Of a stretch of 64,000 nt of DNA, positions 4,564 to 32,325 are shown one piece after another. The translations under genes and the position numbers were made by a program. Under the pieces are notes generated by a model. That model did not search any database. It was not told the DNA's origin and saw nothing but the letters and a program-made list of their open reading frames with translations. The first letter of the stretch is position 1, and every line of letters starts with the position of its first letter. The stretch comes from a candidate division CPR2 bacterium GW2011_GWC2_39_35 (GTDB lineage: Bacteria; Patescibacteriota; CPR2), in the NCBI GenBank assembly GCA_000995065.1, contig LBWX01000004.1, positions 14,431 through 78,430 on the forward strand, given 5' to 3'.

Positions 4564-6499
4564 AAATTAATGTCCCCACGTATTGGTCGCTTGGTTGATT
4601 TTGATTTACTTCTATAGCATACGTGACATATGCATCGGAGCCAAGATCTTTAGAATCCTTATACATAACCGGATGTGCTGTCGTGCTAACCGGCCCAAAT
4701 TTTGCCGAGGCACTGGACCAGCCTGCAACCCTGGTATCATTTGTATTAGCGCCTAACCAACCAGAATCTGAGTTTGTGGACCCGGTTGGACTACTCCAAG
4801 TAGTCGGCGTATCCCAGCTCCCCGTAAAAGGGTCTATCTTATTAGCCGGATATTGTCCCTGCATATAAGCCTGCATTTTTATATTAACCGTATAGCCATT
4901 GGCGGCCGTAGTTTCTACATGAAGCTTTTGGGCGGCATACTCGGGTGATCCGATTTCTAGCTTTCCAAAGGGAACTAAATTATAATCAGTACTTGCCGTA
5001 GTTGTAACGCCATTGGTACTGGTTCCCGATGTTACCCCTTCGACCTTAAAAGTGAGTGATGCCGTATCTTGAATATCATATGACACCGTACCCATATCCA
5101 CCAAGGTCGAGCCTGCATCGCTATAAGTTTTGATGGTAATATTGCAAGTATCATACATAAACCCGGCAATAGTGCAGTCCTCTATTTCAGGATTAATAAC
5201 CCCATTAAGAGGAATGGTAATACTATCACCCAAATTTTTACTTTCACCACCGCCCGAAATTTTTACTAAACCGCTACCAGCACTACTTGTGCTATAAGTC
5301 CAACTACCGTTTGTTAGGCCCGTCATAGTGCCTAACGTCGAGGAGCTAAGGTTTAGATTTGTCGGCTTAGTAGCATCCCCTGCCGCTTTCTCAAACTGAA
5401 AGTCTATTTGCTTAATCGTCGCCGTTGTTCCTAAGGTAAATTGAATAGTATGAGTCGAGGCAGTTCTCGGAGTTATAACAGAAAGCGTATCAGACATACT
5501 GGTTAAGGGATTATAAGGCGTTAAAGTAGCTTTATAGATGTCTTTGTGAGTGTTTCTGGCATCTTGCCAAACCGCGGTTCCGTTATAAATAGCCGGAATC
5601 TTTTGGTCTTGGGAACCGGTAACCACGATAGTCTCTAGTGACTTAGAAATCTGATAAGCATATACATCGGAATTTCCGGAACGAACATCCTCATAAACTA
5701 TGATATCACTGTAAATTCTTGGATACCTAGGATCAGCGCTTCCAGAGGTAATCTGACTGTTTGAACTTTGAGTTAGGTCATATTTGTGAACACTATAATT
5801 ACCGGTAGCAGGTGCTTTTTGGTAAACAAGCTGATCACTGTAAATATGAGGGTAATTTTCATTTGCAGAGTTATTTGTTATTTGAGTTTCACTGCTTCCG
5901 GCTAAGTTATTCGTGAAAACATCATCATTTCCGTTCCTATTATCATAATAAGCAATTTTTTGATCATAAATGACCGGATTTTTTTGGTTTGAAGAGTCAG
6001 TTGATATCTGAGTTTCTTGGCTGGCCTGTAAATCATACATATAGATATCATCGTTTCCATTTCGATTATCCACATACACAATTTTTTGTCCATAAATAGC
6101 CGGATATGTTTGGTCTGACAGATTAGTAGTCACCTGAGTTTCGCTGCTGCCGGACAAATCATAAACGTAAATATGAGAATATGTACCGCCCCGATCACAT
6201 GAATATACGATCTTGTCCCCATCTATGTCGGGATTATATTCATTGGCGCTAGTATTGGTAATTCTCGTCTCAGAACTAGTACCAGTATTATACATGTAAA
6301 TTTCAGTATTTCCATTCCTAGTATCCTCATACACTATTTTCCCAGCAGAAATTCTTGGTTTTGTTTGATCTGAGGAATCTGTAGTTATTCTAGACTCCAC
6401 CACTAATAGGTTTGCCAACGAATAACCGAAATTACCAAATAAAAATACAAAAATAGCTAAATAGACGGTTATTTTTTTGGCAAACACACTTTTAACCAT
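4541..6499 (-). CDS. secreted TolB-like (PD40/WD40-like) beta-propeller repeat protein with conserved C-terminal domain
   Basis: 652 aa; signal peptide; seven to eight ~38-aa repeats 'NGN(D)D(I/V)YMYDL..S.ETQ(I/V)T...S.Q..P.IY..KIVY.D.RNGN'; last ~150 aa are homologous to the C-terminus of ORF 9135..10286. Confidence 0.55.
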   Translation of the reverse strand: MVKSVFAKKITVYLAIFVFLFGNFGYSLANLLVVESRITTDSSDQTKPRISAGKIVYEDTRNGNTEIYMYNTGTSSETRITNTSANEYNPDIDGDKIVYSCDRGGTYSHIYVYDLSGSSETQVTTNLSDQTYPAIYGQKIVYVDNRNGNDDIYMYDLQASQETQISTDSSNQKNPVIYDQKIAYYDNRNGNDDVFTNNLAGSSETQITNNSANENYPHIYSDQLVYQKAPATGNYSVHKYDLTQSSNSQITSGSADPRYPRIYSDIIVYEDVRSGNSDVYAYQISKSLETIVVTGSQDQKIPAIYNGTAVWQDARNTHKDIYKATLTPYNPLTSMSDTLSVITPRTASTHTIQFTLGTTATIKQIDFQFEKAAGDATKPTNLNLSSSTLGTMTGLTNGSWTYSTSSAGSGLVKISGGGESKNLGDSITIPLNGVINPEIEDCTIAGFMYDTCNITIKTYSDAGSTLVDMGTVSYDIQDTASLTFKVEGVTSGTSTNGVTTTASTDYNLVPFGKLEIGSPEYAAQKLHVETTAANGYTVNIKMQAYMQGQYPANKIDPFTGSWDTPTTWSSPTGSTNSDSGWLGANTNDTRVAGWSSASAKFGPVSTTAHPVMYKDSKDLGSDAYVTYAIEVNQNQPSDQYVGTLIYAITPTY

Positions 6500-6727: not shown

Positions 6728-7516
6728 CTAGTAGTTCCTATCAACCTCTCCATAAACCAGGGAGGAAATGTTTTTAATAGTACCCTCAACATTAGCCAGA
6801 TTTGGATTATTGCTTTTGGTCATCACGCACAGAAGATAAGGATTGTCCGGATGATACACTATCCCGCAATCGTGCAATTCACGCTTGGAAAGAATAGCCA
6901 TATCCCCGCCAACAGGCTGAACCTCAGTAAAAAGACCAAACTTATGTGCAACATCTACTCCTTGAGGAACCCCGGCTACCAACCCTTCCTTAAAATCTAC
7001 CTGGCTTAATAGATTAAGTGCTTTCTCGGAGAGTTCCCTTCTCAAATAAGTCGCGTTATAAAGCACTCTAAAGAAATACGAAAAATCACCGGCCGTCATA
7101 TAATCTTGGGTTGATCTATCGGTTGGAGGAGAGAGCTGTAAATCTTTAAATGCCGTATCTAAAACCTGGCGATCTATATTATGCATCAGAGTATTGGTAG
7201 AAATATTATCGGAATATTTTATCATTTTCTCTATCAATTCTTCTACCGTATATGTGTTACCGCTTTTTGCAAAATCTTTCGGCTTTATTTCTAGCTCTCC
7301 GTTGGTATCCGGTTCGGTTATTGTAATTTTCTTAGATAAAATTCCCGGATCAGACCTCGCCGCATTTAAGTAACCAATCATTATCGGAATTTTGTGCAAA
7401 CTGGCCGGAAAAAATTTCTCTTCCGGATTGATGTTTACTTGATTGCCCGACTTGATATCCCTAAAAAAAACAGAAGCCGTATTTACATTGCCAGACTCCA
7501 CCTCTTTATCTACCAA
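6728..7516 (-). CDS. class-A beta-lactamase / PBP-like serine hydrolase, paralog 1 (no signal peptide in this ORF)
   Basis: 262 aa; SxxK motif (PASLHK), SDN motif (YSDNIST), KxG motif (HKFG); about 55% identical to ORF 7917..8699; ORF as called starts at a TTG. Confidence 0.5.
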   Translation of the reverse strand: MVDKEVESGNVNTASVFFRDIKSGNQVNINPEEKFFPASLHKIPIMIGYLNAARSDPGILSKKITITEPDTNGELEIKPKDFAKSGNTYTVEELIEKMIKYSDNISTNTLMHNIDRQVLDTAFKDLQLSPPTDRSTQDYMTAGDFSYFFRVLYNATYLRRELSEKALNLLSQVDFKEGLVAGVPQGVDVAHKFGLFTEVQPVGGDMAILSKRELHDCGIVYHPDNPYLLCVMTKSNNPNLANVEGTIKNISSLVYGEVDRNY

Positions 7517-7916: not shown

Positions 7917-8699
7917 TTACGGTGAAACATTGGCCGCTCTTTCTACTTCCTTATAAACTTCCGAAGAAATGCTTTTAATAGTGCTCTCGATTATTGGGGT
8001 ATCAGATATACTTTTTGTCATTACACAAAGAAAATAAGGCTCTCTCGGATGATAAACAATGCCGCAATCATGCAACTCGTTGTACACGGAATTTGAGCGA
8101 TCAATATTGCCGCCAAGGCCGTATTTATGCGCCACCGGAACATCTTTAGGAACTCCGGCCACCAGACCTTCTTTATAATCAACTTCGCTTAAAATATTAA
8201 GAGCTCTTTCGGATAAGTCCCTTTTTAAATATGTAGCATTGTATAATACCCTAAAGAAATAGGAAAAATCGCTTGCTGAAATATAATCCGCAACTTCACT
8301 CGTAGGATAAGGAATCTTTAGGTCTTTAAATGTTTGATCTAATAGATTTTGATCTATGTTATAGGTAAGCGCATACGCAGCGTTATTATCGGAATGCTTA
8401 ATCATTTTTTCAATTAGCTCTTGGACAGAATATGTTCTGCCATTTTTGGCATAATCTTTTGGCTTAATGCCCTGAACCGAGTTAGTGTCTTCCTCAAAAG
8501 ACACCATTATCTTTTTGTCTAAAATTTTAGGGTCCGTTCTAGCTAGTTTAAAATAAGCAATCATTACCGGAATTTTATGCAAACTGGCCGGATAGAACTT
8601 CTCTTTAGGATTAATGTTTATTTGATTGCCCGACTTGATATCCCTAAAAAAAACAGAAGCCGTATTTACATTGCCAGACTCCACCTCTTTATCTACCAA
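7917..8699 (-). CDS. class-A beta-lactamase / PBP-like serine hydrolase, paralog 2
   Basis: 260 aa; SxxK (PASLHK), SDN (HSDNNAA), HKYG; the first 25 aa are identical to paralog 1. Confidence 0.5.
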   Translation of the reverse strand: MVDKEVESGNVNTASVFFRDIKSGNQININPKEKFYPASLHKIPVMIAYFKLARTDPKILDKKIMVSFEEDTNSVQGIKPKDYAKNGRTYSVQELIEKMIKHSDNNAAYALTYNIDQNLLDQTFKDLKIPYPTSEVADYISASDFSYFFRVLYNATYLKRDLSERALNILSEVDYKEGLVAGVPKDVPVAHKYGLGGNIDRSNSVYNELHDCGIVYHPREPYFLCVMTKSISDTPIIESTIKSISSEVYKEVERAANVSP

Positions 8700-9134: not shown

Positions 9135-10286
9135 TTAGTACTTTGGAGTTGCGTTGTATACCATGTAGCCAGTATATTGGTCAGCTGGCTGATATTGGTT
9201 TACTTCTAGAACAAAAGTAATTCTAACGTCAGTTCCACCATTATCTGGAACCGCTGAAGTCATAACAAGATCTGCAGTACCGTCAACCGGAGCCCACTTG
9301 TTATCAGCGCCTGCGCCCCAGTTTGGAAGAGTGGAGTCATTTGAGTGAGCGCCAATCCATCCGGAGTCTACGTTCTTGGCAGAACCAGTTGGAGTAGTCC
9401 AAACTTCTGGAGCAGTCCAGTCATCAGCCGCCGTATCAAACGGATCAATGAGGTTGCCTGCATACTGGCCGCTCATATCGTCACGCATGGTCATAGTAAC
9501 GTCGTAACCATTGTTGGCGTTAGTAATAACCTCTAAATCCTGTGCCATATAAACAGGGTCGGCAACGGCTAAGTAACCGAATGGCAAAGTGTTAAAGGTT
9601 GAAGTCTGCTCAATAGCATGAGTGTTACCGGTCTGAGCTACGTTAGAAACACCCGTTACGGTAAATCTCATGGATGGATCAACCTTTGCGGTTAAGGTAG
9701 TTTGCTCAGTAATAGTGAAGGTAATGGTTGTCTCGTCAATGTCATTAGCACTAGTCATATCAGCAACAGTGTCGGTGTTATAAGTGGTAATTCTTACATA
9801 ACAAGTACCGGCTGAGCTGTTGGTTGGATTAGGAGAACACCCAGTATTATCAGCATTTATTGGCGGATTGGTGATGTTTTGAATAGTATAAATTGGGTTG
9901 TTGGTTGCCACCAAGGCATCACCCGTAGCACTGGTAATAATCACGTTTCCCGTAGCAGCCTGCGTAAGATTGATGGCCCAGTCGCCGGCATCTAATGGGG
10001 CAGCCGGAGCAGCAAGGGTAGCAGCAGCTAGGTTAATACTGGTCGGTTTAATGGTAAGGGCAGCGTCTTTTCTAAATTCCATTTTAATACCCTTAACTGT
10101 ACCGTTGTTAGAAATTTTATAATTGAACTGATAGTTGGAAGCCGTTGCTCCCCTTGGGTCGGATAGCGTAACCTTTGCGTCGTACAAAAGGTTCCAACCG
10201 TCAGCAGCCATAGCCGGCATAGCCGTGCCAAGCGCCAAAAGCGTGGAAACTGCGTAGGTTGCGATCTTTTTGAAGCTTTTTAACAT
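9135..10286 (-). CDS. secreted protein sharing a C-terminal ~150-aa domain with ORF 4541..6499
   Basis: 383 aa; clear Sec signal (MLKSFKKIATYAVSTLLALGTAMPAMAADG); C-terminal block ...NGYDVTMTMRDDMSGQYAGNLIDPF...WTTPTGS..VDSGWIGAHSNDS...VLEVNQYQPADQYTGYMVYNATPKY aligns with the 4541..6499 C-terminus (...IEVNQNQPSDQYVGTLIYAITPTY). Confidence 0.5.
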   Translation of the reverse strand: MLKSFKKIATYAVSTLLALGTAMPAMAADGWNLLYDAKVTLSDPRGATASNYQFNYKISNNGTVKGIKMEFRKDAALTIKPTSINLAAATLAAPAAPLDAGDWAINLTQAATGNVIITSATGDALVATNNPIYTIQNITNPPINADNTGCSPNPTNSSAGTCYVRITTYNTDTVADMTSANDIDETTITFTITEQTTLTAKVDPSMRFTVTGVSNVAQTGNTHAIEQTSTFNTLPFGYLAVADPVYMAQDLEVITNANNGYDVTMTMRDDMSGQYAGNLIDPFDTAADDWTAPEVWTTPTGSAKNVDSGWIGAHSNDSTLPNWGAGADNKWAPVDGTADLVMTSAVPDNGGTDVRITFVLEVNQYQPADQYTGYMVYNATPKY

Positions 10287-21568: not shown

Positions 21569-21643
21569 TGGCAGGGGCACCAGGATTCGAACCCGGACTA
21601 TTGGTTTTGGAGACCAACGTGCTACCGTTATCACTATGCCCCT
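21569..21643 (-). tRNA. tRNA-Trp (anticodon CCA), CCA end encoded
   Basis: Minus-strand cloverleaf: acceptor AGGGGCA/TGCCCCT, anticodon stem TTGGT/ACCAA with loop CTCCAAA, T-arm GGTTCGAATCC. Confidence 0.85.
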
Positions 21644-21757
21644 TTGCTAACAATTCAAAATGCAAAAATCAAAAGTCAAAATTAAATCGAAAACTATGGA
21701 TTAATAACCTTTTAATTTTTAACTGAACTTTTGACCTTTGCATTTCGACCTTTGCAT

Positions 21758-21922
21758 TTACTTAGTTTCTTTATGAGCTGTGGTTTTTCTGCAGGTAGAA
21801 CAAAACTTGCTGAGTTCTAGTCTATCGGTAGTATTCTTCTTATTCTTTGTTGTCGAATAATTTCGGTTTTTGCATTCCGCGCATGCTATTGCAATTACCG
21901 GTCTGTTTTCTTTCTTGGCCAT
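21758..21922 (-). CDS. rpmG: 50S ribosomal protein L33
   Basis: Manual translation: [54 protein letters not shown] (54 aa, four Cys zinc-ribbon); below the ORF-track size cutoff. Confidence 0.85.
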
Positions 21923-21994
21923 TATTATTCTCCTTTTACAATAATTTTAATTTGGCTTGCCATTTGAAGACTCTGAATAGAGGCTCAGATCTTA

Positions 21995-22053
21995 ACTAAT
22001 CAGCCCTCCTACGCTAAAGCTGGAAGGGCGTTTTACGCGTTGTCGGCGTAAAA
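21995..22053 (-). promoter_or_regulatory. conserved tRNA 3'-trailer module, copy 2
   Basis: cagccctcctacgctaaagctggaagggcgttttacgcgttgtcggcgtaaaa; about 80% identical to copy 3. Confidence 0.4.
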
Positions 22054-22130
22054 TGGAGCCCAGAACGGGATTCGAACCCGTGACCTCATCCTTACCATGG
22101 ATGCGCTCTGCCAACTGAGCTATCTGGGCA
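22054..22130 (-). tRNA. tRNA-Thr (anticodon GGU)
   Basis: TGCCCAGATAGCTCAGTTGGCAGAGCGCATCCATGGTAAGGATGAGGTCACGGGTTCGAATCCCGTTCTGGGCTCCA; anticodon loop ATGGTAA. Confidence 0.85.
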
Positions 22131-22261
22131 AAGGCAAGTAACAAGGAACAGCAAACAAAAAACATTTAAAGCACTTAAAAAGCCCTTGTTTTTTGTTTAT
22201 TGCTTATTGTTAATTGTTAATGGCTTGCCATTTGAAGCCTCAAGATGAAGCTTCGTCGATT

Positions 22262-22323
22262 CTACAAACCAGCCCTCCTTCGCTAAAGCTAGGAAGGGCA
22301 TTTTCCGCCTCGTCGGCGAAAAA
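22262..22323 (-). promoter_or_regulatory. conserved tRNA 3'-trailer module, copy 3
   Basis: cagccctccttcgctaaagctaggaagggcattttccgcctcgtcggcgaaaaa directly 3' of tRNA-Tyr. Confidence 0.4.
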
Positions 22324-22408
22324 TGGTGGGCAGGGAGGGATTCGAACCCCCGAAGGCGATGCCAGCAGATTTACAGTCTGCCCCCGTTGGCCGCTTGGGT
22401 ACCTGCCC
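22324..22408 (-). tRNA. tRNA-Tyr (anticodon GUA) with long variable arm
   Basis: GGGCAGG...CAGACTGTAAATCTGC...long variable arm TGGCATCGCCTTCG...GGGGGTTCGAATCCCTCCCTGCCCACCA. Confidence 0.85.
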
Positions 22409-22537
22409 GTAAGAAAGTTAAAAATTTAAAATGCAAAAATCAAAATCTCAGTAATTTGCTTTGCAAATGTTTTTTATAATAGAAGATTTCGCTAGAAACC
22501 CACCATAATTTTGATTTTTAAATTTTTAATTTACTTC

Positions 22538-22612
22538 TGGAGCCACCTGTCGGATTCGAACCGACAACCTACTGTTTACAAAACAGTTGCTCTGCCGTTG
22601 AGCTAAGGTGGC
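22538..22612 (-). tRNA. tRNA-Thr (anticodon UGU)
   Basis: GCCACCTTAGCTCAACGGCAGAGCAACTGTTTTGTAAACAGTAGGTTGTCGGTTCGAATCCGACAGGTGGCTCCA; anticodon loop TTTGTAA. Confidence 0.8.
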
Positions 22613-22651
22613 AAAAATATATAATTATTATAAACTATTTTTTATGTATGT

Positions 22652-22724
22652 GGGCCACCTGTCGGATTCGAACCGACAACCTACTGTTTACAAAACAGTT
22701 GCTCTGTCGCTCTTACTAGTTGGC
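22652..22724 (-). pseudogene. degenerate duplicate of tRNA-Thr(UGU); 3' two-thirds identical, D-arm destroyed, no CCA
   Basis: The 3' ~52 nt (ccacctgtcggattcgaaccgacaacctactgtttacaaaacagttgctctg) are identical to the 22538..22612 copy. The 5' part is GCCAACTAGTAAGAGCGACAGAGC, whose D-stem cannot pair. Confidence 0.5.
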
Positions 22725-23040: not shown

Positions 23041-23709
23041 TTAACTTATCTGCTTCTCGATTTCTTTCTCAATCTTTTCTTTGTCATCAATCTCGAAAGC
23101 TAAACAGCACATTAGTCGGCCGCAAATACCGGAGATTTTTGAGCCCGATTTCTGTGTAATATTTTGCTCCCTAGCCATATCCATAGTAATACTTTCTAGA
23201 TCGATTAAGAAACGCTGGCAGCAAACTTCCCTGCCGCATCTGCCAAAACCGCCCATAATTCGAGCTGCATCCCGAGATCCTATTTGTAAAAGCCGAATTT
23301 GTTTCTTGTAAACTCTGGCTAACTCTCTTACCAAATCCCTAAAATCCACGCGATTTTCAGAAACGAAATAAAAAGTTAATCTCTTTTCGTCAATAGAGAT
23401 ATCAGCCACCACGGGCTTCATTTTTAATTCGAAAATCTTGACCTGTTTTTCAAATTCGGGCATATATTCTTTAGCTTCTTTTTTTAATTCTTCCGCTTTT
23501 AGAAGATCTTCCTCGGTTGCTTTCCTTAAAATTGGCTTGATCTCTTCCGTTGCTGTCCGCTTATTTTTATTCAAATAAACAACCCTACCAATTTCTTGGC
23601 CCTGGACTGTTTCAACCACAACTCTTTCGCCGAGCTTTAGCTCGATATCAATTTGGTTAAAATCATAGATCTTCAAACTATAAGGAAACTGTACGCCTGC
23701 TAATTTCAT
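23041..23709 (-). CDS. yaaT: PSP1 C-terminal domain protein (YaaT/RicT-like)
   Basis: 222 aa; PSP1-like N-terminal region and Cys-rich motifs CGREVCCQRF / CGRLMCCLAFE; conserved holB-yaaT adjacency as in Firmicutes. Confidence 0.65.
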   Translation of the reverse strand: MKLAGVQFPYSLKIYDFNQIDIELKLGERVVVETVQGQEIGRVVYLNKNKRTATEEIKPILRKATEEDLLKAEELKKEAKEYMPEFEKQVKIFELKMKPVVADISIDEKRLTFYFVSENRVDFRDLVRELARVYKKQIRLLQIGSRDAARIMGGFGRCGREVCCQRFLIDLESITMDMAREQNITQKSGSKISGICGRLMCCLAFEIDDKEKIEKEIEKQIS

Positions 23710-24620
23710 ATATTTAAAACAAAGCTCTCTAAAATAAGTTTATTATTTAATTTACCCCCAACATATTCCTTTGTTTTTTTAAGATTGTCAAGGATATTAA
23801 CAATCTCTTCTACTTTATATTTAGGAAAAAACGTCAAATCCCGACGAGACACAAGATCGTTATTCCCCGTTTTTAAAAGGAGCAAATCTCTAAAGCTCAC
23901 CTCCCACTGATTGAGCACGGTCATAATATCTTCCCTCTCCGCTAGCTCTTGAACTTTTTTAAAACGTCCGGCAAATGATGTTTCTATAATTTCCTTTAAA
24001 AACAACAAGCTTTCTTCGTGAGTCTTATTCTCCACCATCTCTCTTGCCATCCTTATCTTGCCTCCAGAGAGCCGAGCGATATTTTCGACTTCTTCGGGCA
24101 AAATATCATATTCGTTTTCTAAGATCTCCTGAAGACTTTTTACATCGATAGGCGACAATTTAATCTCTTGACATCTTGATTTTATGGTAGGTAAAACATT
24201 CATCGCGCTCTCAGCGGTTAGAATGATAATAGCGCTCCCAGAAGGCTCTTCTAGGGTTTTTAAGAGGCTATTCGCTGCCTCTGTAGTAATTCTTTCGATA
24301 TTTGGAATAATAACAATCTTTTTATCGTATCCGTAAGGCTTTAGCTCTAGTATTTTCTTTAAATCCCGGATTTGCTCGATTTTAATAGATCCGCCCTCTT
24401 TAATATAATGCAAATCCGGATTTGACATTTTCTGGATGCTTTGGCAAGCTTCGCAACTGCCACATGCGTGGCCAGACTCACAAATCGAAACTTTTGCAAT
24501 CATAAAAGCAAAATCCAACTTACCCATCCCCTCCGATCCGGAAATCAGATAAGCATGATTTAGACCCCCTTGTTTTTTAGCATTAATTATATTTTCGAGA
24601 TCCTTTTTATGCGTAATCAT
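23706..24620 (-). CDS. holB: DNA polymerase III delta' subunit
   Basis: 304 aa; N-terminal ...HAYLISGSEGMGKLDFAFMIAKVSICESGHACGSCEACQSI (AAA+ P-loop remnant plus Zn-binding Cys cluster typical of delta'); 4-nt overlap with yaaT. Confidence 0.7.
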   Translation of the reverse strand: MITHKKDLENIINAKKQGGLNHAYLISGSEGMGKLDFAFMIAKVSICESGHACGSCEACQSIQKMSNPDLHYIKEGGSIKIEQIRDLKKILELKPYGYDKKIVIIPNIERITTEAANSLLKTLEEPSGSAIIILTAESAMNVLPTIKSRCQEIKLSPIDVKSLQEILENEYDILPEEVENIARLSGGKIRMAREMVENKTHEESLLFLKEIIETSFAGRFKKVQELAEREDIMTVLNQWEVSFRDLLLLKTGNNDLVSRRDLTFFPKYKVEEIVNILDNLKKTKEYVGGKLNNKLILESFVLNI

Positions 24621-24781
24621 AGGTGGATTATAACAATTTTGGGCAAAGTATGAAAGACCAAAGATTAAGGTGAAGGTAAAGAAGCCGGTATGGTTTGGGG
24701 GTTAGGGCAAAGTCTTTTATTTCTATTTTACCCTCACCTTCTTTCCAAACTAGCATCCCAACCTTCACCTTTACCGAAATC

Positions 24782-25774
24782 TCATTTAAGTTTATCTAGT
24801 GTTTTCCGAAAATCCTCCGGCAACTGAGCCTCAAATTCCTGCCATTTTAGAGTTGAAGGATTTGTTATGCCAAGTCTAAAAGCATGAAGCATGTGCCTCA
24901 TGACACCCATATCTTCGGCTTCTTTTTGCTTATTTCTGGAAGAATATAATTTATCGCCCACGATAGGATGACCAATAAAGGCCAGATGAACTCTAATCTG
25001 ATGTGTCCTCCCGGTAATCGGAAAAGCATTTACTAATGAAGTATGTGCAAACTCCTGGCCCACCTCAAATTCAGTTACGGATTTTCTTCCGACTACCGAA
25101 ACTCCCATCTTTTTTCTCTCAGATATTAATCTCTTTATTGGAACTTCTACCTTCCCTTTTTTTGAATCTAGATGACCGAAAACAATAGCCTTATAATGCT
25201 TTTTGATTTTTCGTCCCTGGATCTGGTCAGAAAGTGATTTTAAAGATTTAGGCGTCTTAGCAACCACCATAATTCCGGAAGTTTCTTTATCTAATCGATG
25301 CACAATTCCAAAACGCGACGAATCTATCTTTTTAAGATTCGGTCTCAAAAAGGCCAAGACATTAACTAAAGTATCTTCCTCGTGTCCGACTGCCGGGTGA
25401 ACCACTAATCCGGCTGGCTTATTAATTACCAAGATTCCTTCGTCTTCGTAAATAATATCTAAGCTACTTTTTAGGGGCTTTATTTCTTTGCCATCCTTTT
25501 CTTCATCTAAGGATTTTACAGCAATGATATTACCTTCTTTAAGGATATGGCTTGGCTTTTTCGACTCTCCATCTACTAGAATACTGCCCCCCTCAATTAG
25601 TCTTACCACAAAAGATCTGGAATATTCCGGCAGTTTAAAAACTAAAAAGCGATCCAGCCTTTCACCGGATTCGCTTACTGACACTTTAAATTCTTTCGTT
25701 AATCCTGACATTTTATGCACGTATCGGCCTCGGGAATCACTTCGAGCCGCTCTCTTTCTATAAAACGATCGCAA
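24782..25774 (-). CDS. rluD: RluA-family 23S rRNA pseudouridine synthase (RluD-like) with N-terminal S4 domain
   Basis: Catalytic motif HRLDKETSGIMVVAKT; S4-like region ERLDRFLVFKLPEYSRSFVVRLIEGG; true start probably the internal Met (MSGLTKEF, about 25711), giving only a 13-nt overlap with the upstream gene. Confidence 0.75.
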   Translation of the reverse strand: MRSFYRKRAARSDSRGRYVHKMSGLTKEFKVSVSESGERLDRFLVFKLPEYSRSFVVRLIEGGSILVDGESKKPSHILKEGNIIAVKSLDEEKDGKEIKPLKSSLDIIYEDEGILVINKPAGLVVHPAVGHEEDTLVNVLAFLRPNLKKIDSSRFGIVHRLDKETSGIMVVAKTPKSLKSLSDQIQGRKIKKHYKAIVFGHLDSKKGKVEVPIKRLISERKKMGVSVVGRKSVTEFEVGQEFAHTSLVNAFPITGRTHQIRVHLAFIGHPIVGDKLYSSRNKQKEAEDMGVMRHMLHAFRLGITNPSTLKWQEFEAQLPEDFRKTLDKLK

Positions 25775-26079
25775 TTACTGCACCTTCCATATGTCCCGGA
25801 ATCGATTCTTTCTAAAGCATTTTCGATATTAGTCTTAATATTTAAAAGACTTTTTAATACCGCCAATCTTTCTTCGAACTGTGCTTGTTCCCCAGCAGTT
25901 TCTGTCCATTCGTCGCCAATATTGCCACTTGCAGCATCATCACCCCAGTCAACAAATCTTGGTCGCCAATGACCATCAGCTGTTCTCTCACCAACATATT
26001 CTATCTCTTCGCCCACTTCTTTGAGCCGTGATTCTAGCTTCTTTTTTTGCTCCCCAACAAATTCTTTACTTAGCAACAA
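25699..26079 (-). CDS. DksA/TraR-family C4 zinc-finger protein
   Basis: 126 aa; coiled-coil region with acidic tip (VDWGDDAASGNIGDEW) and C-terminal CSNCDRFIERERLEVIPEADTCIKCQD. Confidence 0.6.
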   Translation of the reverse strand: MLLSKEFVGEQKKKLESRLKEVGEEIEYVGERTADGHWRPRFVDWGDDAASGNIGDEWTETAGEQAQFEERLAVLKSLLNIKTNIENALERIDSGTYGRCSNCDRFIERERLEVIPEADTCIKCQD

Positions 26080-27088
26080 AGCTCTCCTCGGAAAAAATTG
26101 AGTTAGTTATTTCTTCTAACTGCTTTTTTGTTCCCATTATTATTAATTTATCCTTACTATAAACAACCTGGTCTCCGGATGGATTAACTACCGAGGTTCC
26201 GTCGAACCTATTTATTGCGAGCACCGTAACCCCCGTCTTCTTCCTGGAAAGATACTCTGTTAATTTATGCCCGACTAAAGGCGAATCCTCATCTACTTTC
26301 ACCTCTTCCACCTGCAATTCATCATGCTTACTATCAATTATAACGTCCAAAAAGTCAACTACAGCCGGACGCATGGCCATTGTTGCCATATGATAACCGC
26401 CAATTTGATAGGGCATCGCCACCCGATCCGCCCCGGCTTTTTCCATTTTAGAAGTATTTTCATCCAAGTTGCATCTAGCCACGATGTATAATTTAGGGTT
26501 TAAAGAACGAGCAGCCAGGGTGAGTAGAAGATTATCAGTATCCTCTCCTAAGGCTGCGATTAGGCATTTTGCGCTGTATATTCCCGCCTCCCTTAAATTA
26601 TCCTCAAAAGTAGGGTCCTTTGCAATGTACATTGCGCCTTTTGCAATCTTATTTTCAAAAACTTTTTCGTTTCTATCGACAACAATGAATTCCACACCCT
26701 CATTGTTTAGCTCATGCACAATTTGCTGCCCAACCCTACCGCAGCCGCAAACAATATAATGGTCTTTTAATTCTTCGATATCTTTTTTCATTCTTCTCCT
26801 CCTTATATTATCGCCCAAAGTACCCTCAAAGATATATTGAGCAAAAACTTTAAATAAGTAAGCAATCATAATAAGACTGCCAACCATTAGAATAAGTATT
26901 AAAATACGCACTGACCACGGCTCATTAACTTCATGAAAAAAATGAGTTAAAAGCACAATCAAAGTCTGATAAAAGGCCGAGGGGACATCCATGCCTCGAA
27001 AATAAACAAATCCAATTGTCCCCCCCAGAAGCAGGAAGATAAATAAAAGCAAAACTAGCTTTAAATTTCTTTTTTCTTCTTTTCTCAT
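26066..27088 (-). CDS. RCK/TrkA-N domain membrane protein (K+ channel-like)
   Basis: 340 aa; two to three N-terminal TM helices followed by Rossmann motif YIVCGCGRVGQQIVHELNNEGVEFIVVDRNE (TrkA-N) and an RCK_C-like C-terminal part. Confidence 0.55.
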   Translation of the reverse strand: MRKEEKRNLKLVLLLFIFLLLGGTIGFVYFRGMDVPSAFYQTLIVLLTHFFHEVNEPWSVRILILILMVGSLIMIAYLFKVFAQYIFEGTLGDNIRRRRMKKDIEELKDHYIVCGCGRVGQQIVHELNNEGVEFIVVDRNEKVFENKIAKGAMYIAKDPTFEDNLREAGIYSAKCLIAALGEDTDNLLLTLAARSLNPKLYIVARCNLDENTSKMEKAGADRVAMPYQIGGYHMATMAMRPAVVDFLDVIIDSKHDELQVEEVKVDEDSPLVGHKLTEYLSRKKTGVTVLAINRFDGTSVVNPSGDQVVYSKDKLIIMGTKKQLEEITNSIFSEESFVAK

Positions 27089-28311
27089 TGTGCTAAAGTT
27101 TCTTGTATCTCAGTTAGTTTAACGGTTATGATTTCCGGAAGAACTTTGGACACCTCAACATCGCCAGGCTTAATGACCATATCTTTACTCACTTGAATTT
27201 TGTGCTCGCCGGCAACTTGATAACTACTTAGGTCTATATTTAAGATGACATTTTCGCTTGTGATTGGTGTAAGTGAAGCTTGCGACCCGGTTAATGTAAC
27301 CGCTGTCATTGTTAAAATTTCCGCCTTTAGTTTTGGATTGGCTTTCTTAAAATTGATTGAAGGAGTAACGGTTTTAGCGCTGTCTAAATCGGCGACAAAA
27401 ATTTGAACACTAACTTTATCCAAGTTCTCTACCAAAGTCACTTTATCCGGCAAAGTAAGCTTTACTCTATCCATAATGTTTTTATTTGAATTTGCCAGAT
27501 CAATTTCCGCCGTTTCCACAAATTCTATATTCTTAATCTTCTCGAGCTCGCCTTTTATTGCAACTATCGGAGGGTCAATTCTTACTTTATTAACCCAATA
27601 TCCTTTTGCAGTCTCGCCTTTTAGCTTCACTTTTATGCCAACGGTTTTAGACTCTACTTTTGGTAGAATCGGCAGATAAACAGGAGTCTTTTCCGGATTA
27701 AATTTTAAAAATCTAATGGGATTATCCGTCTCGTCAAAAGCTATAACCGGAACTTCGCCATCTATATTTCCCTTCTCATTACCTTTAAGCTCCACGAAAG
27801 CCGCTACCTCATTTATCTGTTTTATTTTGGATGGTGCTCCCAGAACTTCTACATCCTTTGTTTTTACTTCTCCTTCACCAGATCGATAGTCGCCGCTTGG
27901 ATCGCCTTTAGTCTTTAAAACAATAGGTATCTTTTTTGTTTCCTCATCCTCAAGTTTTAATAGCACATTCTGAGGCTCCGTGCCAAGAATCTGGACTGAC
28001 GGATCCTTTGAAATCACCTTTATATCCACATGTTCAGCGCCACCACTTTTTATTGCCGAAGCGTCCACAAAAACATCAAAATTGTCTGAATTTAGCTTTG
28101 AATACACCGACATTGGCGCTTTTATTTTGATTTTGACGTTACCCGGATCCTCGGCAACTGCTAAGCCTGTTTGAATATTTTTAACATCAACACTGACGTC
28201 TTTAGGAAAGAAGCCAAGTCTCATGTCGACGGCCGTTACAAATATCCAAAAACAAAAGGCCAATACCAAGGACATAAACTTAGCAAAGAAATTGTTGGTT
28301 ATGTACTTCAT
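27085..28311 (-). CDS. cdaR: YbbR-repeat protein (CdaR-like)
   Basis: 408 aa; N-terminal TM helix and repeated beta-rich YbbR-like modules; sits directly downstream of the CdaA-N homolog with a 4-nt overlap, matching the conserved cdaA-cdaR synteny. Confidence 0.55.
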   Translation of the reverse strand: MKYITNNFFAKFMSLVLAFCFWIFVTAVDMRLGFFPKDVSVDVKNIQTGLAVAEDPGNVKIKIKAPMSVYSKLNSDNFDVFVDASAIKSGGAEHVDIKVISKDPSVQILGTEPQNVLLKLEDEETKKIPIVLKTKGDPSGDYRSGEGEVKTKDVEVLGAPSKIKQINEVAAFVELKGNEKGNIDGEVPVIAFDETDNPIRFLKFNPEKTPVYLPILPKVESKTVGIKVKLKGETAKGYWVNKVRIDPPIVAIKGELEKIKNIEFVETAEIDLANSNKNIMDRVKLTLPDKVTLVENLDKVSVQIFVADLDSAKTVTPSINFKKANPKLKAEILTMTAVTLTGSQASLTPITSENVILNIDLSSYQVAGEHKIQVSKDMVIKPGDVEVSKVLPEIITVKLTEIQETLAQ

Positions 28312-28763
28312 TCTTCCTCCGCCTCGGCATGCCTTCGACCATGATCGGACGCACTTCGAGTAGTGACCCCGGTGGAATCAACCTCAGAGGAAACCTTTGA
28401 CGAAGACTTCTTTTTACTCATTAAGCTTAATGCTTCTCTAATCTCGGGTTGAAAAATGATCGGAATTGAAACAATTAAAACTAAAAATAATTTAGAAAAT
28501 AGCCAACTGACCGCATTTAAGTCTAGTAGCTGTCCAAGCCCGGCAAAAACAGCAAAAACTAAGAATCCGGGAAGATATCTGGATGCAGTTGTCCTCTGTA
28601 AAAATAAATAAAGCCAGTAAAAAACATAGGCCACAATTATGACGTCCAAAATAAATAAAGGCTTTACTCGAAAAGTATCGGATGTAAATATCCAACCAAT
28701 CTGGCCCCATAAAGAATATAAGAAATTGGCAAGCCAGGAAGCAAATTTATCGATTTGACCCAT
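28308..28763 (-). CDS. CdaA N-terminal membrane domain homolog lacking the DAC (diadenylate cyclase) domain
   Basis: 151 aa; three TM helices and a linker ...IIFQPEIREALSLMSKKK matching the CdaA linker (..IVIFQPEIRRALEQLGRG); ends in a 35-aa charged tail, with no DGA/RHR cyclase motifs. Confidence 0.5.
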   Translation of the reverse strand: MGQIDKFASWLANFLYSLWGQIGWIFTSDTFRVKPLFILDVIIVAYVFYWLYLFLQRTTASRYLPGFLVFAVFAGLGQLLDLNAVSWLFSKLFLVLIVSIPIIFQPEIREALSLMSKKKSSSKVSSEVDSTGVTTRSASDHGRRHAEAEEE

Positions 28764-28871
28764 TTACCCTCCTTTTGCTTAAGTTATTGTAGCATGGTAA
28801 GGGCTATAGTGACAATATTGTTTGTAAACTTGGAATTAACTTAAAGAATATCCTAAGATCTGAATAAATTC

Positions 28872-29198
28872 CTAGTGAAAAACTAGGTACAATAACCCCA
28901 TAAGCCCCAACCAGCTTACAATATATAAAGTAAGCCGCCACTCTCTGGGCTTTCCGGTTCGCCATTCATTAAAAGTTGCAAATGGTATTAAAAATGACAC
29001 CAAAAGAGGTGCCAAAATTACCGATTGAAAAAATAAAAAATAGTTGCCAATTGAAAACAAAGTGCTTTTAAAGACACCGCAATTATCACAGTAATAAGAA
29101 GCTTTAAACAAATAAAACCAAACCGGATACAAAATAAAAGAAGCCAAGAGAACAATCGTGGTTTTACTAACAAACTTTGTAAACCGATTATTTATCAT
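28872..29198 (-). CDS. hypothetical small membrane protein (3 TM)
   Basis: 108-aa ORF; three hydrophobic helices; CDNCG motif. Confidence 0.35.
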   Translation of the reverse strand: MINNRFTKFVSKTTIVLLASFILYPVWFYLFKASYYCDNCGVFKSTLFSIGNYFLFFQSVILAPLLVSFLIPFATFNEWRTGKPREWRLTLYIVSWLGLMGLLYLVFH

Positions 29199-29527
29199 AC
29201 TTTAATTATAACGCAAGATAGGCTAACAGTTAAATCATGAGTTATATAACTTAAGAAGTTTTAATCCCCTCTTCCTGGAGGGAGTCCATATGGATAAAAA
29301 AAGGGTTTGGGCGAGGGGAGGGTAGAGAAAGAAAAAAGGACATATTCCAAAGCTGATTTTCGATTTTGCTTATCCATAGCTATATTATAGCACAACATTA
29401 CAATTTTAGTGCGACCGCATAATAAATGCAATATAAGCAACAAAAGGTTTGGGAGAATGTTTGGAGAGCTGAGAATTTGATTGCTTATAAATCGATTTTA
29501 CTGCTAAAATATATATAAGGAGAATAA

Positions 29528-30184
29528 ATGGAAAATCAGAAAAGTCATAAGGGAGCAATTATTACTTTATCCATCCTTCTACCCGTTCTAACCCTAAGCG
29601 GAGTTGGCGGAACTTATTTTGTGATGGATCAAAAGTCCACCAAAGCTAATGAAGACGCTTTAAAAAGAATTGAGGCGCTAGAAAAGAAAGTTAACGAAAA
29701 TACTACTACAAAAAAGGAGGAAACAACACCAACTCCAACAAAGACTATAATCGCTGACAATATAATAAATCTAAAAACTTTAAAAGTTGGCGATAAAGTC
29801 GGTGCATTTAATGTTAAATCCATTGCTCCATACAGGTCAGAATATTCAGCATTATCAAATAGCAACATAAAAATTGAATTTACCGGAACAACAACTGTCA
29901 CTGGCACATACGAATATACTGCACCGGATTCTAATACAATGTTTGGAGGAGATTTCTTTAAATTTGACAAACTAGATTCAGCCTCTAAGAAAAAAATACC
30001 TACTTTGAATGATGGGATTGATTGGTTTGGTTTTACTAATAATACTTCTGAGCTAAAGCAAGGATTCGAAATAAAGGGAAGTAAGGATACAACAGAAACT
30101 GTAACTATAATGATTAGCGATTTTACGTTTGTAAGATACCCATCAGAAGTCTTTAGTACAGCCACTTATTTGATACCGGAATAA
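29528..30184 (+). CDS. hypothetical N-terminally anchored extracytoplasmic protein
   Basis: 218 aa; one N-terminal TM helix; Thr-rich linker (TTTKKEETTPTPTKT); beta-rich C-terminal domain. Confidence 0.45.
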   Translation: MENQKSHKGAIITLSILLPVLTLSGVGGTYFVMDQKSTKANEDALKRIEALEKKVNENTTTKKEETTPTPTKTIIADNIINLKTLKVGDKVGAFNVKSIAPYRSEYSALSNSNIKIEFTGTTTVTGTYEYTAPDSNTMFGGDFFKFDKLDSASKKKIPTLNDGIDWFGFTNNTSELKQGFEIKGSKDTTETVTIMISDFTFVRYPSEVFSTATYLIPE

Positions 30185-30238
30185 AATAAATTCCTTAAAC
30201 AGGATCTCCAATCAGCCCTGTTTTTATCTTCCTCTTTT

Positions 30239-30529
30239 TTAACATTTAAAATTAATACCAATCCCTTTTTCTTCCCAAACATCAGTTTTAGCGGCTATTT
30301 TTTTATGATCTGGATGGTTGCGATAGGCATCTAGAGCTTCCTGGGTATCTGCCAAAACCACTACAGCGTGAGTAAATCCATCATTCCATTTGTTATAATT
30401 CTCACCACATAAAATATCGCTAAGACCTTCCACCTTATCCCTTAAAGATCTTATCTCATTAAAAGCTTCTTCAATTTCTTCTTTTGTTACTTCTGGCTTC
30501 CACTTAAAGATTGCTATGTGAGTTATCAT
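30239..30529 (-). CDS. Dabb-family stress-responsive dimeric alpha/beta-barrel protein
   Basis: 96 aa; MITHIAIFKWKPEVTKEEIEEAFNEIRSL... typical Dabb pattern. Confidence 0.55.
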   Translation of the reverse strand: MITHIAIFKWKPEVTKEEIEEAFNEIRSLRDKVEGLSDILCGENYNKWNDGFTHAVVVLADTQEALDAYRNHPDHKKIAAKTDVWEEKGIGINFKC

Positions 30530-30921
30530 CTTTTCTCCTTTGTTTGCTTTATTATAGCAAAATTTGTTATAATCCCCTTATGAATTTACATAGTGCTGTT
30601 TTTTGTAGTAATGATCTATCAAAAGTTGTACCCTTCTACGCTGAGCGACTTGGTTTTAAACTTGAGTACCAGCAAGATGATAAATTTGTCTCGTTTATTT
30701 TCCCAAATGGCGCCAGACTGGGTATTAAAAGAAAAGTTGAAGACCGAGAGATCCCCGGCGCCCAAACCGTTTTTATAGAAGTTAAAGACATCGAAAATCT
30801 TTACGAAAGAATTAAAAAAAGCGATATAAAAATATTAAAAGAATTGGTTGTTCAGGATTGGGGCAAAAACTTTAGTATCCTCGACCCGGATAATAATAAA
30901 GTGCAATTTGTGGAACAATAG
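30511..30921 (+). CDS. VOC/glyoxalase-bleomycin resistance family protein (true start probably about 30580)
   Basis: ...AERLGFKLEYQQDDKFVSFIFPNGARLGIK...QDWGKNFSILDPDNNKVQFVE is the glyoxalase fold pattern; the first ~23 aa of the called ORF overlap the Dabb gene. Confidence 0.55.
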   Translation: MLCELSSFLLCLLYYSKICYNPLMNLHSAVFCSNDLSKVVPFYAERLGFKLEYQQDDKFVSFIFPNGARLGIKRKVEDREIPGAQTVFIEVKDIENLYERIKKSDIKILKELVVQDWGKNFSILDPDNNKVQFVEQ

Positions 30922-30924
30922 TAT

Positions 30925-31230
30925 ATGCAAAAACATCAAAAAGAACTAGATAGTTGGTTCAAAGAACATGGCTGGGAATACTGGCGGCCTTTTGAGATTC
31001 TTGCTGCTATTATGGAAGAAACTGGCGAATTAGCAAGATTGGTTAATCATATTTATGGACCTAAAAAGAAAAAGCCGGAAGAAGCTGCCCAAGAATTAGA
31101 AGGAGAGCTCGGCGACATATTATATAACCTAATCTGCTTTGCAAATTCTCATAATATTAACCTCGATGACGCCTTTAAGAAAAGCTTTAACAAATCGATT
31201 ACAAGAGATAAGCACCGTTTTGATAAATAA
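30925..31230 (+). CDS. MazG-like nucleotide pyrophosphohydrolase
   Basis: 101 aa; EETGELARLVNHIYGPKKKK...ELGDILYNLICFANSHNINLDDAF (EExxE...D motifs). Confidence 0.65.
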   Translation: MQKHQKELDSWFKEHGWEYWRPFEILAAIMEETGELARLVNHIYGPKKKKPEEAAQELEGELGDILYNLICFANSHNINLDDAFKKSFNKSITRDKHRFDK

Positions 31231-31495
31231 AAGCCGGTCAATTAGTTTGTATTTGTGTTAAAATAGTAAAATAAAAACTAAGACAACGTATAATATTCCT
31301 AGCCATTTCTCTCCTAAAGAAAAAGTATCAATTGAAGAAAAGCTTGCAATTATTGAGCGTTATATAGCAGGGACTAATACACTTAAAGAACTTGCTACCG
31401 AAATTACTCAAAGACGTTTAAATTGGCTAAGAGAAAACAAACAGATCTTAAAACATCATAGTGATTTATCGATTCCGGAAATTGCTCACAGAGCC

Positions 31496-31792
31496 TTGTA
31501 TCTAGGTCATATGAAAATAATTCCTGAACATTCCGTCGTAGAAAAAATTTCTGATAATAAAATGGGAATCAAATCCTATAATTTCTGTCCTTATTTGGAG
31601 GCTTGTCAAATACTCGGATTGGATACTCGAATAATCTGTAAAGAACTGGGCGAGCCATCTTGCCAACTTTTTGTTAAAGCAATTCACCCATCGTTAAGAT
31701 TTTCCAGAACTTATTATGACAAATTAAGACCTAATTGCTCATATTGTGAAGAGTTCATTGAGCTTATAGATCCTGAAGCAGGTTCAGGATGA
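31496..31792 (+). CDS. hypothetical Cys-rich protein (ORF may extend upstream to a non-ATG start)
   Basis: 98 aa from a TTG start; the reading frame stays open upstream to about 31270; Cys pairs CPYLEAC...C...C...CSYC. Confidence 0.35.
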   Translation: MYLGHMKIIPEHSVVEKISDNKMGIKSYNFCPYLEACQILGLDTRIICKELGEPSCQLFVKAIHPSLRFSRTYYDKLRPNCSYCEEFIELIDPEAGSG

Positions 31793-31798
31793 CGAGTG

Positions 31799-31866
31799 AG
31801 AAAGGGATTGCTTCGTCGACTCACTCCTCAATGACATCCTCTCGTCAACGAAGTGGTATTTTTTTG
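31799..31866. repeat. related palindromic element (gacgagtgag aaagggattgcttcgtcgactcactcctcaatgac atcctctcgtcaacgaag)
   Basis: Shares GATTGCTTCGTC and CAATGAC with the other two copies; nested inverted repeats. Confidence 0.4.
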
Positions 31867-31880
31867 TTTACTGTTCACTT

Positions 31881-31907
31881 AAAAACCGCCCGAAGGCGGT
31901 TTTTATT
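31881..31907. terminator. bidirectional rho-independent terminator shared by ORF 31496..31792 (+) and rpsI (-)
   Basis: aaaaaccgcccgaaggcggtttttatt overlapping the rpsI stop codon. Confidence 0.6.
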
Positions 31908-32325
31908 ATCTTTTTGCGAACTGTGGCGCTTTTCTAGCTCTTTTAAGACCGTATTTCTTTCTTTCCTTTTCTCTCGGATCTCTGGTTAGAAAACCAGCTT
32001 TTTTAAGAGTTGGTCGAAATTCCGGATTAAATTCAAGAAGAGCTCTGGAAATTCCCAACCTTACCGCTTCGGCCTGACCGGTTTTGCCGCCGCCATCAGC
32101 CTTAATGGAAATATCGAACTTTCCTTCGGTTCCGGTAAGCTTTAGAGGTTGAATGAGTCTATCTAAAAGAATCTTTGAAAAGAAAGCATCTTCTACAGCA
32201 TTCTTATCATTTATAGTGATTGTGCCTTTACCAGAATATAATCTTACTCTGGCAACTGCCTCTTTTCTTCGTCCCAATCCGTAATAATATTCTTTTTTTG
32301 CTTGTTTAATTGGTTCTTTTACCAT
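31906..32325 (-). CDS. rpsI: 30S ribosomal protein S9
   Basis: C-terminal ...[62 protein letters not shown]. Confidence 0.9.

Follow-up and report, generated by a model that had tools for sequence, protein, structure and literature searches.

The membrane-embedded diadenylate cyclase CdaA joins a transmembrane domain (TMD) to a catalytic diadenylate cyclase (DAC) domain that produces cyclic di-AMP (c-di-AMP). Membrane embedding lifts the cyclase activity of CdaA more than 100-fold by confining the DAC domains, an AlphaFold2 (AF2) multimer prediction places a tetramer interface in the TMD through transmembrane helix 3 (TMH3), and a conserved amphipathic region of the protein is possibly regulatory (PMC11686323). 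The transmembrane (TM) helices are dispensable for catalysis in vitro (PMC11686323, PMC10117814). The partner protein CdaR, a direct binder of CdaA, is exposed at the cell surface and may sense wall integrity or tension (PMC10117814). Why CdaA is embedded in the membrane and which signal CdaR senses are stated open questions (PMC11686323, PMC10117814). Here we describe a locus in a 64,000-nucleotide (nt) stretch of DNA (hereafter referred to as the window) from the candidate division CPR2 bacterium GW2011_GWC2_39_35 (contig LBWX01000004.1, positions 14,431 to 78,430), in which a cdaA homologue encodes the CdaA membrane domain and the adjoining linker helix, has no DAC domain and is tightly coupled to cdaR. 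The encoded protein (hereafter referred to as short CdaA) is conserved throughout a CPR2 clade and evolves under purifying selection. We found no description of a stand-alone CdaA_N domain in the literature searched, a search outside which a survey of DAC architectures fell.

The 151-residue short CdaA matches the Pfam family CdaA_N (PF19293) over residues 38 to 108 with 25.1 bits, above the gathering cut-off of 23.8, and aligns with the NCBIfam model for CdaA (TIGR00159) only at positions 14–103 of 254 (43.8 bits against a cut-off of 188.8). A custom hidden Markov model (HMM) built from 39 full-length CdaA proteins (A4) covers much the same part of the protein, at positions 8–112 of 273 (E = 6.5e-33), and a profile of the short family (A2), comprising the window open reading frame (ORF) and four orthologues, matches residues 21–109 of the solved Lactococcus lactis CdaA chain 9G69_C at the level of sequence (E = 1.1e-9). 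These matches bear out the original prediction, made from the letters of the window, that the ORF represents the CdaA membrane domain and linker with its cyclase domain missing, and they place the CdaA_N assignment on an HMM footing.

The residues that are near-invariant in full-length CdaA, namely the TM1 aspartate, the T-x-A loop and the AIPxxFQPE[IL]R segment, are all kept in the short form. Alignment to full-length CdaA with hmmalign places the invariant Asp40 in TM1 and T58-x-A60 in the following loop, both common to the full-length proteins. The linker (IIFQPEIREAL) contains the canonical FQPE[LI]R motif of CdaA, whose residues F104, Q105, P106, E107 and R109 do not vary among the short proteins, and together with TMH3 it forms the best-conserved portion of the protein. 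The N-terminal amphipathic/extracytoplasmic region is likewise conserved across the short family and is predicted to form a helix that remains under the TM hydropathy threshold. Past the linker, the canonical LGRG is replaced by [LM][ST]KK in most short-form lineages (L082 retains LEKIGG), and the C-terminal tail is predicted to be disordered and is conserved in neither length nor sequence among the orthologues. AF2 monomer models of short CdaA reached a predicted local distance difference test (pLDDT) score of 59 with 6 sequences and 68 with 104 sequences, and a Foldseek comparison of the model with the PDB returned no match. The window tail is about 20 residues longer than those of its relatives and ends in DHGRRHAEAEEE, superficially like the RHR motif of DAC domains. 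MAFFT placed this RHR-like stretch (HGRRHAEAEEE) on the DAC 'GTRHRAA...SEE' columns, but the HMMs lend it no support and no orthologue carries it in its tail, and we judge the likeness to be due to chance.

The catalytic domain was not found in any form at this locus. The short protein does not match the DAC family (PF02457), a tblastn search of the window with full-length CdaA recovered only the N-terminal part, and a six-frame search of the window with hmmsearch --max returned nothing for positions 113–273 of the custom HMM. DAC-like sequence was also absent by hmmsearch --max from every frame of eight related loci (L001–L003 and L082–L086, about 83 kb), and from the 10 kb beyond one window end (L093); complete CdaA was recovered by the same six-frame HMM search from two positive controls, L087 and L062. 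A frameshifted or hidden DAC at the locus is excluded by these searches, in agreement with the original remark that the gene order leaves no room for the domain, and no DAC sequence of the kind that would betray an assembly frameshift was found in any frame. Stop-codon read-through or an alternative genetic code was considered and rejected: the TGA is followed two codons on by a TAA, and three lineages use TAA. In this genome the DAC searches cover about 74 kb (the window and L093; the largest contig exceeds 0.5 Mb). A protein search for DAC homologues, which is a weak test, showed no CPR2-named protein among the best 120 of 7,929 matches. With its DAC domain absent, short CdaA is predicted to be unable to produce c-di-AMP by itself. 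The DAC domain is what defines a diadenylate cyclase, and the protein should accordingly be described as a homologue of CdaA_N only and not by that name. With regard to other components of c-di-AMP signalling, no ydaO riboswitch was detected within the 64-kb window at Rfam gathering thresholds. A stand-alone 215-residue HD-domain protein is encoded about 9 kb past the window end (L093, 284–931) and is too generic to be labelled a c-di-AMP phosphodiesterase.

The identical 151-residue protein is present on 12 contigs from several CPR2 metagenome-assembled genomes and studies, the longest contig measuring 521,778 bp, and identical copies have been deposited as KKR17872.1, KKR27182.1, HBG81353.1 and HCL99672.1 under the annotation 'TIGR00159 family protein'. 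Its homologues are all 109–148 residues long and share 63–73% (P0002–P0005) or 34–47% identity (P0007 and P0010) with it. The orthologous ORFs in the related loci are complete, encode 127–148 residues and end in genuine stop codons. We thus distinguish six short-form lineages (the window, L001, L002, L003, L082–L085 and L086), with pairwise identities of 34–73% and lengths of 127–151 residues. Short CdaA is under purifying selection: between the window and L003, pN is 0.20 and pS 0.73, with synonymous sites saturated, and for the closest pair, L002 and L003, dN/dS is 0.19, within the range of the cdaR and RCK genes. The features expected of a pseudogene were not seen, as there is no relaxed selection, the ORFs are intact in all lineages and no DAC fragments are present. 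Short CdaA is a functional protein and not a decaying or frameshifted gene, and the word 'remnant', under which the locus had originally been described, is misleading, because a CPR2-level clade as a whole has conserved the protein in its short form. Purifying selection on the membrane anchor makes it probable that the anchor serves a purpose of its own.

The closest full-length relatives (P0011/L087 and the Saccharibacteria locus L062) encode normal, DAC-bearing CdaA, which in L087 forms a normal CdaA(DAC)–CdaR pair within an IF2–cdaA–cdaR–obg context like that of the candidate phyla radiation. The short form is therefore derived, and the comparison of sequences suggests that everything after the linker helix was deleted in the ancestor of a CPR2 clade. 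Other complete CdaA_N-only ORFs occur in metagenomes (L088, 87–455, 122 residues; L089, 859–1173, 104 residues), in unrelated lineages and on very short contigs. The CPR2 case is the only one here that combines clade-wide conservation, linkage to cdaR and evidence of selection.

A YbbR protein of about 400 residues, CdaR, is encoded directly after short cdaA in all six lineages, the two genes overlapping or lying within about 10 nt of each other. In the window, the cdaR ATG (28311–28309) and the short cdaA TGA (28310–28308) share a 4-nt overlap (ATGA), and CdaR has four YbbR stretches preceded by one hydropathy-predicted TM helix. The original prediction of this overlap and of an otherwise intact cdaA–cdaR synteny is correct, and the two genes are adjacent in every short-form lineage. 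Since the TM helix is the sole membrane part of CdaR, its contact with CdaA must involve the CdaA TMD, and the pair of modules kept by CPR2 is exactly the CdaA TMD and CdaR.

Our favoured explanation, to which we assign a probability of roughly 0.55, is that short CdaA forms oligomers in the membrane, associates with CdaR and has a membrane or envelope function independent of the cyclase; it builds on sequence comparison and on the biology of full-length CdaA. In this scheme, the ancestor of a CPR2 clade would have lost the DAC domain by a deletion that starts just past the juxtamembrane amphipathic helix, and the N-terminal region, the three TM helices and the FQPE[IL]R helix would have been kept as a stand-alone membrane protein together with CdaR. 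By analogy with CdaA biology and with the AF2 multimer prediction for the full-length TMD, short CdaA may oligomerise through TMH3. It would touch CdaR at its single TM helix, with the four YbbR domains of CdaR turned towards the cell envelope, and the resulting CdaA-TMD/CdaR complex might sense the envelope or act as a scaffold with no involvement of a cyclase. Three considerations weigh against this explanation. The sole documented role of the CdaA TMD is to confine and oligomerise DAC domains (PMC11686323), a role that makes no sense in a protein lacking a DAC and that speaks for a partner cyclase. A DAC protein, whether of the DisA type, a soluble DAC or a second full-length CdaA, may be encoded outside the roughly 74 kb of this genome that was searched. 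Finally, the AF2 monomer model is modest (pLDDT 68), and the complex with CdaR is one that we infer. A more far-reaching version, in which CPR2 has lost c-di-AMP synthesis entirely and keeps the CdaA TMD and CdaR as an autonomous envelope or osmotic sensor whose direct targets would be membrane partners, for instance the neighbouring RCK protein with its His-rich, non-K+ pore loop, is one that we put forward tentatively.

The membrane module might instead serve a divided enzyme, in which a soluble or otherwise anchored DAC encoded elsewhere is recruited or regulated at the membrane by short CdaA and CdaR; c-di-AMP signalling would then persist, and the neighbouring RCK_C domain could still be a c-di-AMP receptor. 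Concentrating DAC domains at the membrane is what the TMD is known to do, and the short family keeps without variation the amphipathic FQPE[IL]R helix, for which a regulatory role has been proposed in full-length CdaA (PMC11686323). RCK-bearing cation transporters, moreover, flank cdaA_N–cdaR in every lineage. We nonetheless consider this arrangement rather doubtful, given that the DAC was found neither in the 64 kb plus 10 kb of this genome nor in the related loci, that the weak test among DAC homologues was also negative for CPR2, and that the tail past the linker is variable and predicted to be disordered, which leaves no conserved docking segment beyond the linker.

The genes for short CdaA, CdaR, the RCK protein and a DksA/TraR-type protein are tightly packed on the minus strand, with each start overlapping the preceding stop (Table 1). 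The cdaR stop and the RCK gene start overlap by 4 nt, and the DksA/TraR-type gene overlaps the end of the RCK gene by 14 nt. Ahead of the short cdaA ATG at 28763 lie a strong Shine-Dalgarno sequence, AAGGAGGG (28774–28767), and a promoter-like TTGTCA-18-TACAAT element with a TG at 28815–28786, for which a consensus scan provides weak evidence. The 4-nt stop/start overlap of short cdaA and cdaR suggests translational coupling, and short cdaA, cdaR and the RCK gene are probably co-transcribed and translationally coupled.

Table 1. Features of the short cdaA locus, in window positions
Feature	Position	Strand	Evidence
Headless (cyclase-less) CdaA, 151 residues	28308..28763	-	PF19293; TIGR00159 (partial); custom CdaA HMM; A2 profile against 9G69_C
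N-terminal region of short CdaA, residues 1–35 (MGQIDKFASWLANFLYSLWGQIGWIF...)	28659..28763	-	Invariant A2 columns; AF2 helix 2–26; Kyte-Doolittle scan
Three TM helices of short CdaA, about residues 36–54, 64–82 and 85–103	28455..28658	-	Hydropathy scan; AF2 secondary structure; hmmalign against full-length CdaA
Juxtamembrane amphipathic linker helix of short CdaA (FQPEIREALSLMSKK...), residues 104–123	28395..28454	-	Predicted helix 105–123, pLDDT about 75–84
Variable charged/Ser-rich C-terminal tail of short CdaA, residues 124–151	28311..28394	-	pLDDT below 50 for residues 129–151
CdaR, 408 residues: one N-terminal TM helix and four YbbR repeats	27085..28311	-	PF07949, 83.7 bits; TM helix at residues 12–30
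MthK/GsuK-architecture protein, 340 residues: TM1, pore-helix-like segment, TM2, RCK_N (GCGRVG), RCK_C	26066..27088	-	PF02254; PF02080; end-to-end MthK match
Pore-loop motif T48-H-F-F-H-E53 of the RCK protein	26930..26947	-	HMMER alignment to GsuK TTLGFGD
DksA/TraR-type C4 zinc-finger protein, 126 residues	25699..26079	-	PF01258; TIGR02890/NF033459 (partial); synteny
Putative expression signals of short cdaA	28767..28815	-	Consensus scan (weak evidence); sequence
Small 3-TM protein with CxxC motif, 108 residues, immediately upstream of short cdaA	28872..29198	-	

The 108-residue CxxC protein is an uncertain member of the module. It has no Pfam or NCBIfam family match, and a counterpart (43% identity) is kept upstream of short cdaA in L002 and L003 only, being absent in L001, L082 and L086. 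Between the S9 gene and the cdaA_N operon lies a variable island (29528–31792) that encodes a Dabb stress-responsive barrel protein, a glyoxalase-fold protein, a MazG-like pyrophosphohydrolase and two ORFs that belong to no family; it is missing from L082, where S9 directly precedes cdaA_N.

The RCK protein contains TrkA_N (PF02254, 112.9 bits) and TrkA_C (PF02080, 53.1 bits) domains preceded by two N-terminal TM helices predicted by hydropathy. It aligns end to end with MthK (residues 11–331 against chain residues 22–334, E about 5e-22) and also with GsuK, and shows weak similarity to KhtT (E = 2.8e-6), which with KtrA, KtrC, CpaA and BusR belongs to the proteins whose RCK_C domains are c-di-AMP receptors; the TrkA_C fold is present. 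At the position of the K+ selectivity filter (T-V-G-Y-G-D), it carries THFFHE (LLTHFFHE against GsuK TTLGFGD), in which both glycines are gone. H49 and F50 of this loop are invariant in the CPR2 orthologues, and a motif of the [ST]-H-[FWVY]-x-H-[GEK] type, with a few variants (for example, SHFYDxx), is present in all 120 best homologues (47–71% identity, about 330 residues; P0286–P0404). The protein does not match Ion_trans_2 at E<=1, nor do the 120 best homologues bear that annotation. Where their sources are named, these homologues come from Patescibacteria, WS5 and CPR2, and some are labelled 'voltage-gated potassium channel'. The sequence thus depicts a protein that is channel-shaped and not a canonical K+ channel. 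The earlier identification of an RCK membrane protein as the next gene downstream is correct, and its description as K+-channel-like holds for the MthK/GsuK architecture and fails for the selectivity filter, which is absent.

All 6 short-form lineages have an RCK ORF within 4 kb of short cdaA, compared with 0 of 79 full-length cdaA loci. The order rpoA–L17–L13–S9–RCK–RluD–HolB–PSP1, compared with window positions 23041–32325, is however kept in other Patescibacteria and in WS5 (L090–L092), where no cdaA or cdaR is nearby. A DksA/TraR-type gene follows cdaR or the RCK gene in 4 of 5 relative lineages (absent in L002; L001 was not assessable) and is absent from this place in other Patescibacteria. 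The gene orders point to an insertion of cdaA_N–cdaR, usually with the DksA/TraR-type gene, into an ancestral arrangement around the RCK gene. As the RCK gene occupies the same slot elsewhere without cdaA or cdaR, its adjacency counts as one event passed on by descent and gives weak evidence of a link to c-di-AMP or of any functional link; of the suggestion that the RCK neighbour ties the locus to c-di-AMP, the adjacency itself is real. Among other transporters, a Na_H_Exchanger+TrkA_N (Kef/CpaA-like) gene stands just upstream of short cdaA in L001 (6480–8207) and L086 (1204–5653), and in L086 a gene for a P-type cation ATPase is upstream as well. In Streptococcus mutans, binding of DacA to a P-type Ca-ATPase has been reported (PMC13289029), and the likeness of the L086 ATPase to this partner may be a coincidence.

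A direct functional link between CdaA_N/CdaR and the MthK-like RCK protein is possible. One could imagine that the CdaA-TMD/CdaR pair senses the envelope or osmotic state and acts by membrane contact on the co-translated RCK protein, so that a relay between proteins replaces the c-di-AMP relay. In the window, L002 and L003, 4-nt ATGA overlaps link short cdaA to cdaR and cdaR to the RCK gene, and the 6 of 6 against 0 of 79 association described above would suit such a relay. Yet the six lineages inherit one gene order and count as one event, not six; Patescibacteria that lack cdaA and cdaR at this place also have the RCK gene in the S9...RluD slot; L086 has lost the MthK-like gene from the operon and keeps cdaA_N–cdaR; and in L082 the RCK gene is set off from cdaR by a 38-nt gap. 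We regard such gating as unlikely.

Short CdaA could also form hetero-oligomers, via TMH3, with a full-length CdaA from another part of the genome and tune its activity as a dominant-negative or regulatory subunit. The predicted role of TMH3 in CdaA tetramerisation (AF2 multimer; PMC11686323) and the strong conservation of TMH3 and the linker in the short form are compatible with this, but a GTDB scan with two peptide patterns found one match per CPR2 genome, the short gene, among the best 80 of 301 relatives (a scan that a divergent paralogue could escape), and cdaR accompanies the short gene and not a hypothetical full-length copy, which makes such a subunit very improbable. That the gene is a non-functional remnant, a frameshift or an assembly artefact is scarcely credible, for although it is truncated relative to every characterised CdaA, genes of the same length class recur in separate assemblies and across lineages that share as little as 34% identity, with clean stops, a strong ribosome-binding site, no DAC fragments in other frames and pN far below pS.

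The CPR2 clade amounts to a natural domain-deletion experiment, in which the cyclase was discarded and the TM domain, the amphipathic helix and CdaR stayed under purifying selection. Their retention argues for a membrane module that is selectable on its own, and the CPR2 proteins allow the function of the TMD–CdaR pair to be tested free of the essentiality of c-di-AMP. If CPR2 indeed has no DAC, the locus would document a reduced genome dismantling a second-messenger pathway with its sensor hardware retained. If, as in the more far-reaching version above, CPR2 has lost c-di-AMP synthesis entirely and the module is autonomous, a further role of the membrane half of CdaA, as yet unrecognised, would be expected in ordinary bacteria as well.

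Elsewhere in the window, two tandem Beta-lactamase2-family paralogues on the minus strand (6728–7516 and 7917–8699) share the same first 25 residues (VDKEVESGNVNTASVFFRDIKSGNQ). On either side of this pair, also on the minus strand, large secreted proteins are encoded (4541–6499 and 9135–10286) that have a similar C-terminal segment, and the arrangement suggests a local duplication. A cluster of five tRNA genes (21572–22724, minus strand) lies between the surface-protein region and the PSP1/HolB genes.

A comparison with described systems places the short form closest to CdaA/DacA (TIGR00159; L. lactis CdaA, PDB 9G69; PMC11686323). The two share the N-terminal region, the three TM helices, the FQPE[LI]R helix, the TM1 aspartate and the T-x-A loop, as well as a cdaR gene that follows immediately and overlaps, whereas the short form is without the whole DAC domain (PF02457, with its DGA/RHR motifs) and the cationic C terminus, ends 8–45 residues past FQPE[IL]R and has no glmM in its operon. 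As in the cdaA–cdaR–glmM operon of Firmicutes, CdaR combines one N-terminal TM helix with four YbbR repeats, and its gene comes straight after cdaA, the start of the one overlapping the stop of the other. In CPR2, however, the partner of CdaR has no enzymatic domain to regulate, and genes for an RCK membrane protein and a DksA/TraR zinc-finger protein stand downstream in place of glmM. The 340-residue neighbour shares with MthK and GsuK the two-TM pore-domain layout, RCK_N with its GxGxxG motif and RCK_C, and differs from them in having THFFHE for TVGYGD and no Pfam Ion_trans_2 match. The metagenomic ORFs L088 and L089 resemble short CdaA in being complete, in matching PF19293 and in ending soon past the linker; they differ in that the canonical LEQLGRG linker is kept, and L088 is followed by an RsmE-type methyltransferase gene (rsmE) with no cdaR or DAC gene downstream. 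Catalytically dead GGDEF/EAL proteins are degenerate second-messenger enzymes retained as scaffolds or sensors. By analogy, short CdaA is a member of a signalling-enzyme family kept under selection without catalytic capacity, with the difference that here the catalytic domain has been deleted outright and it is the membrane module that survives.

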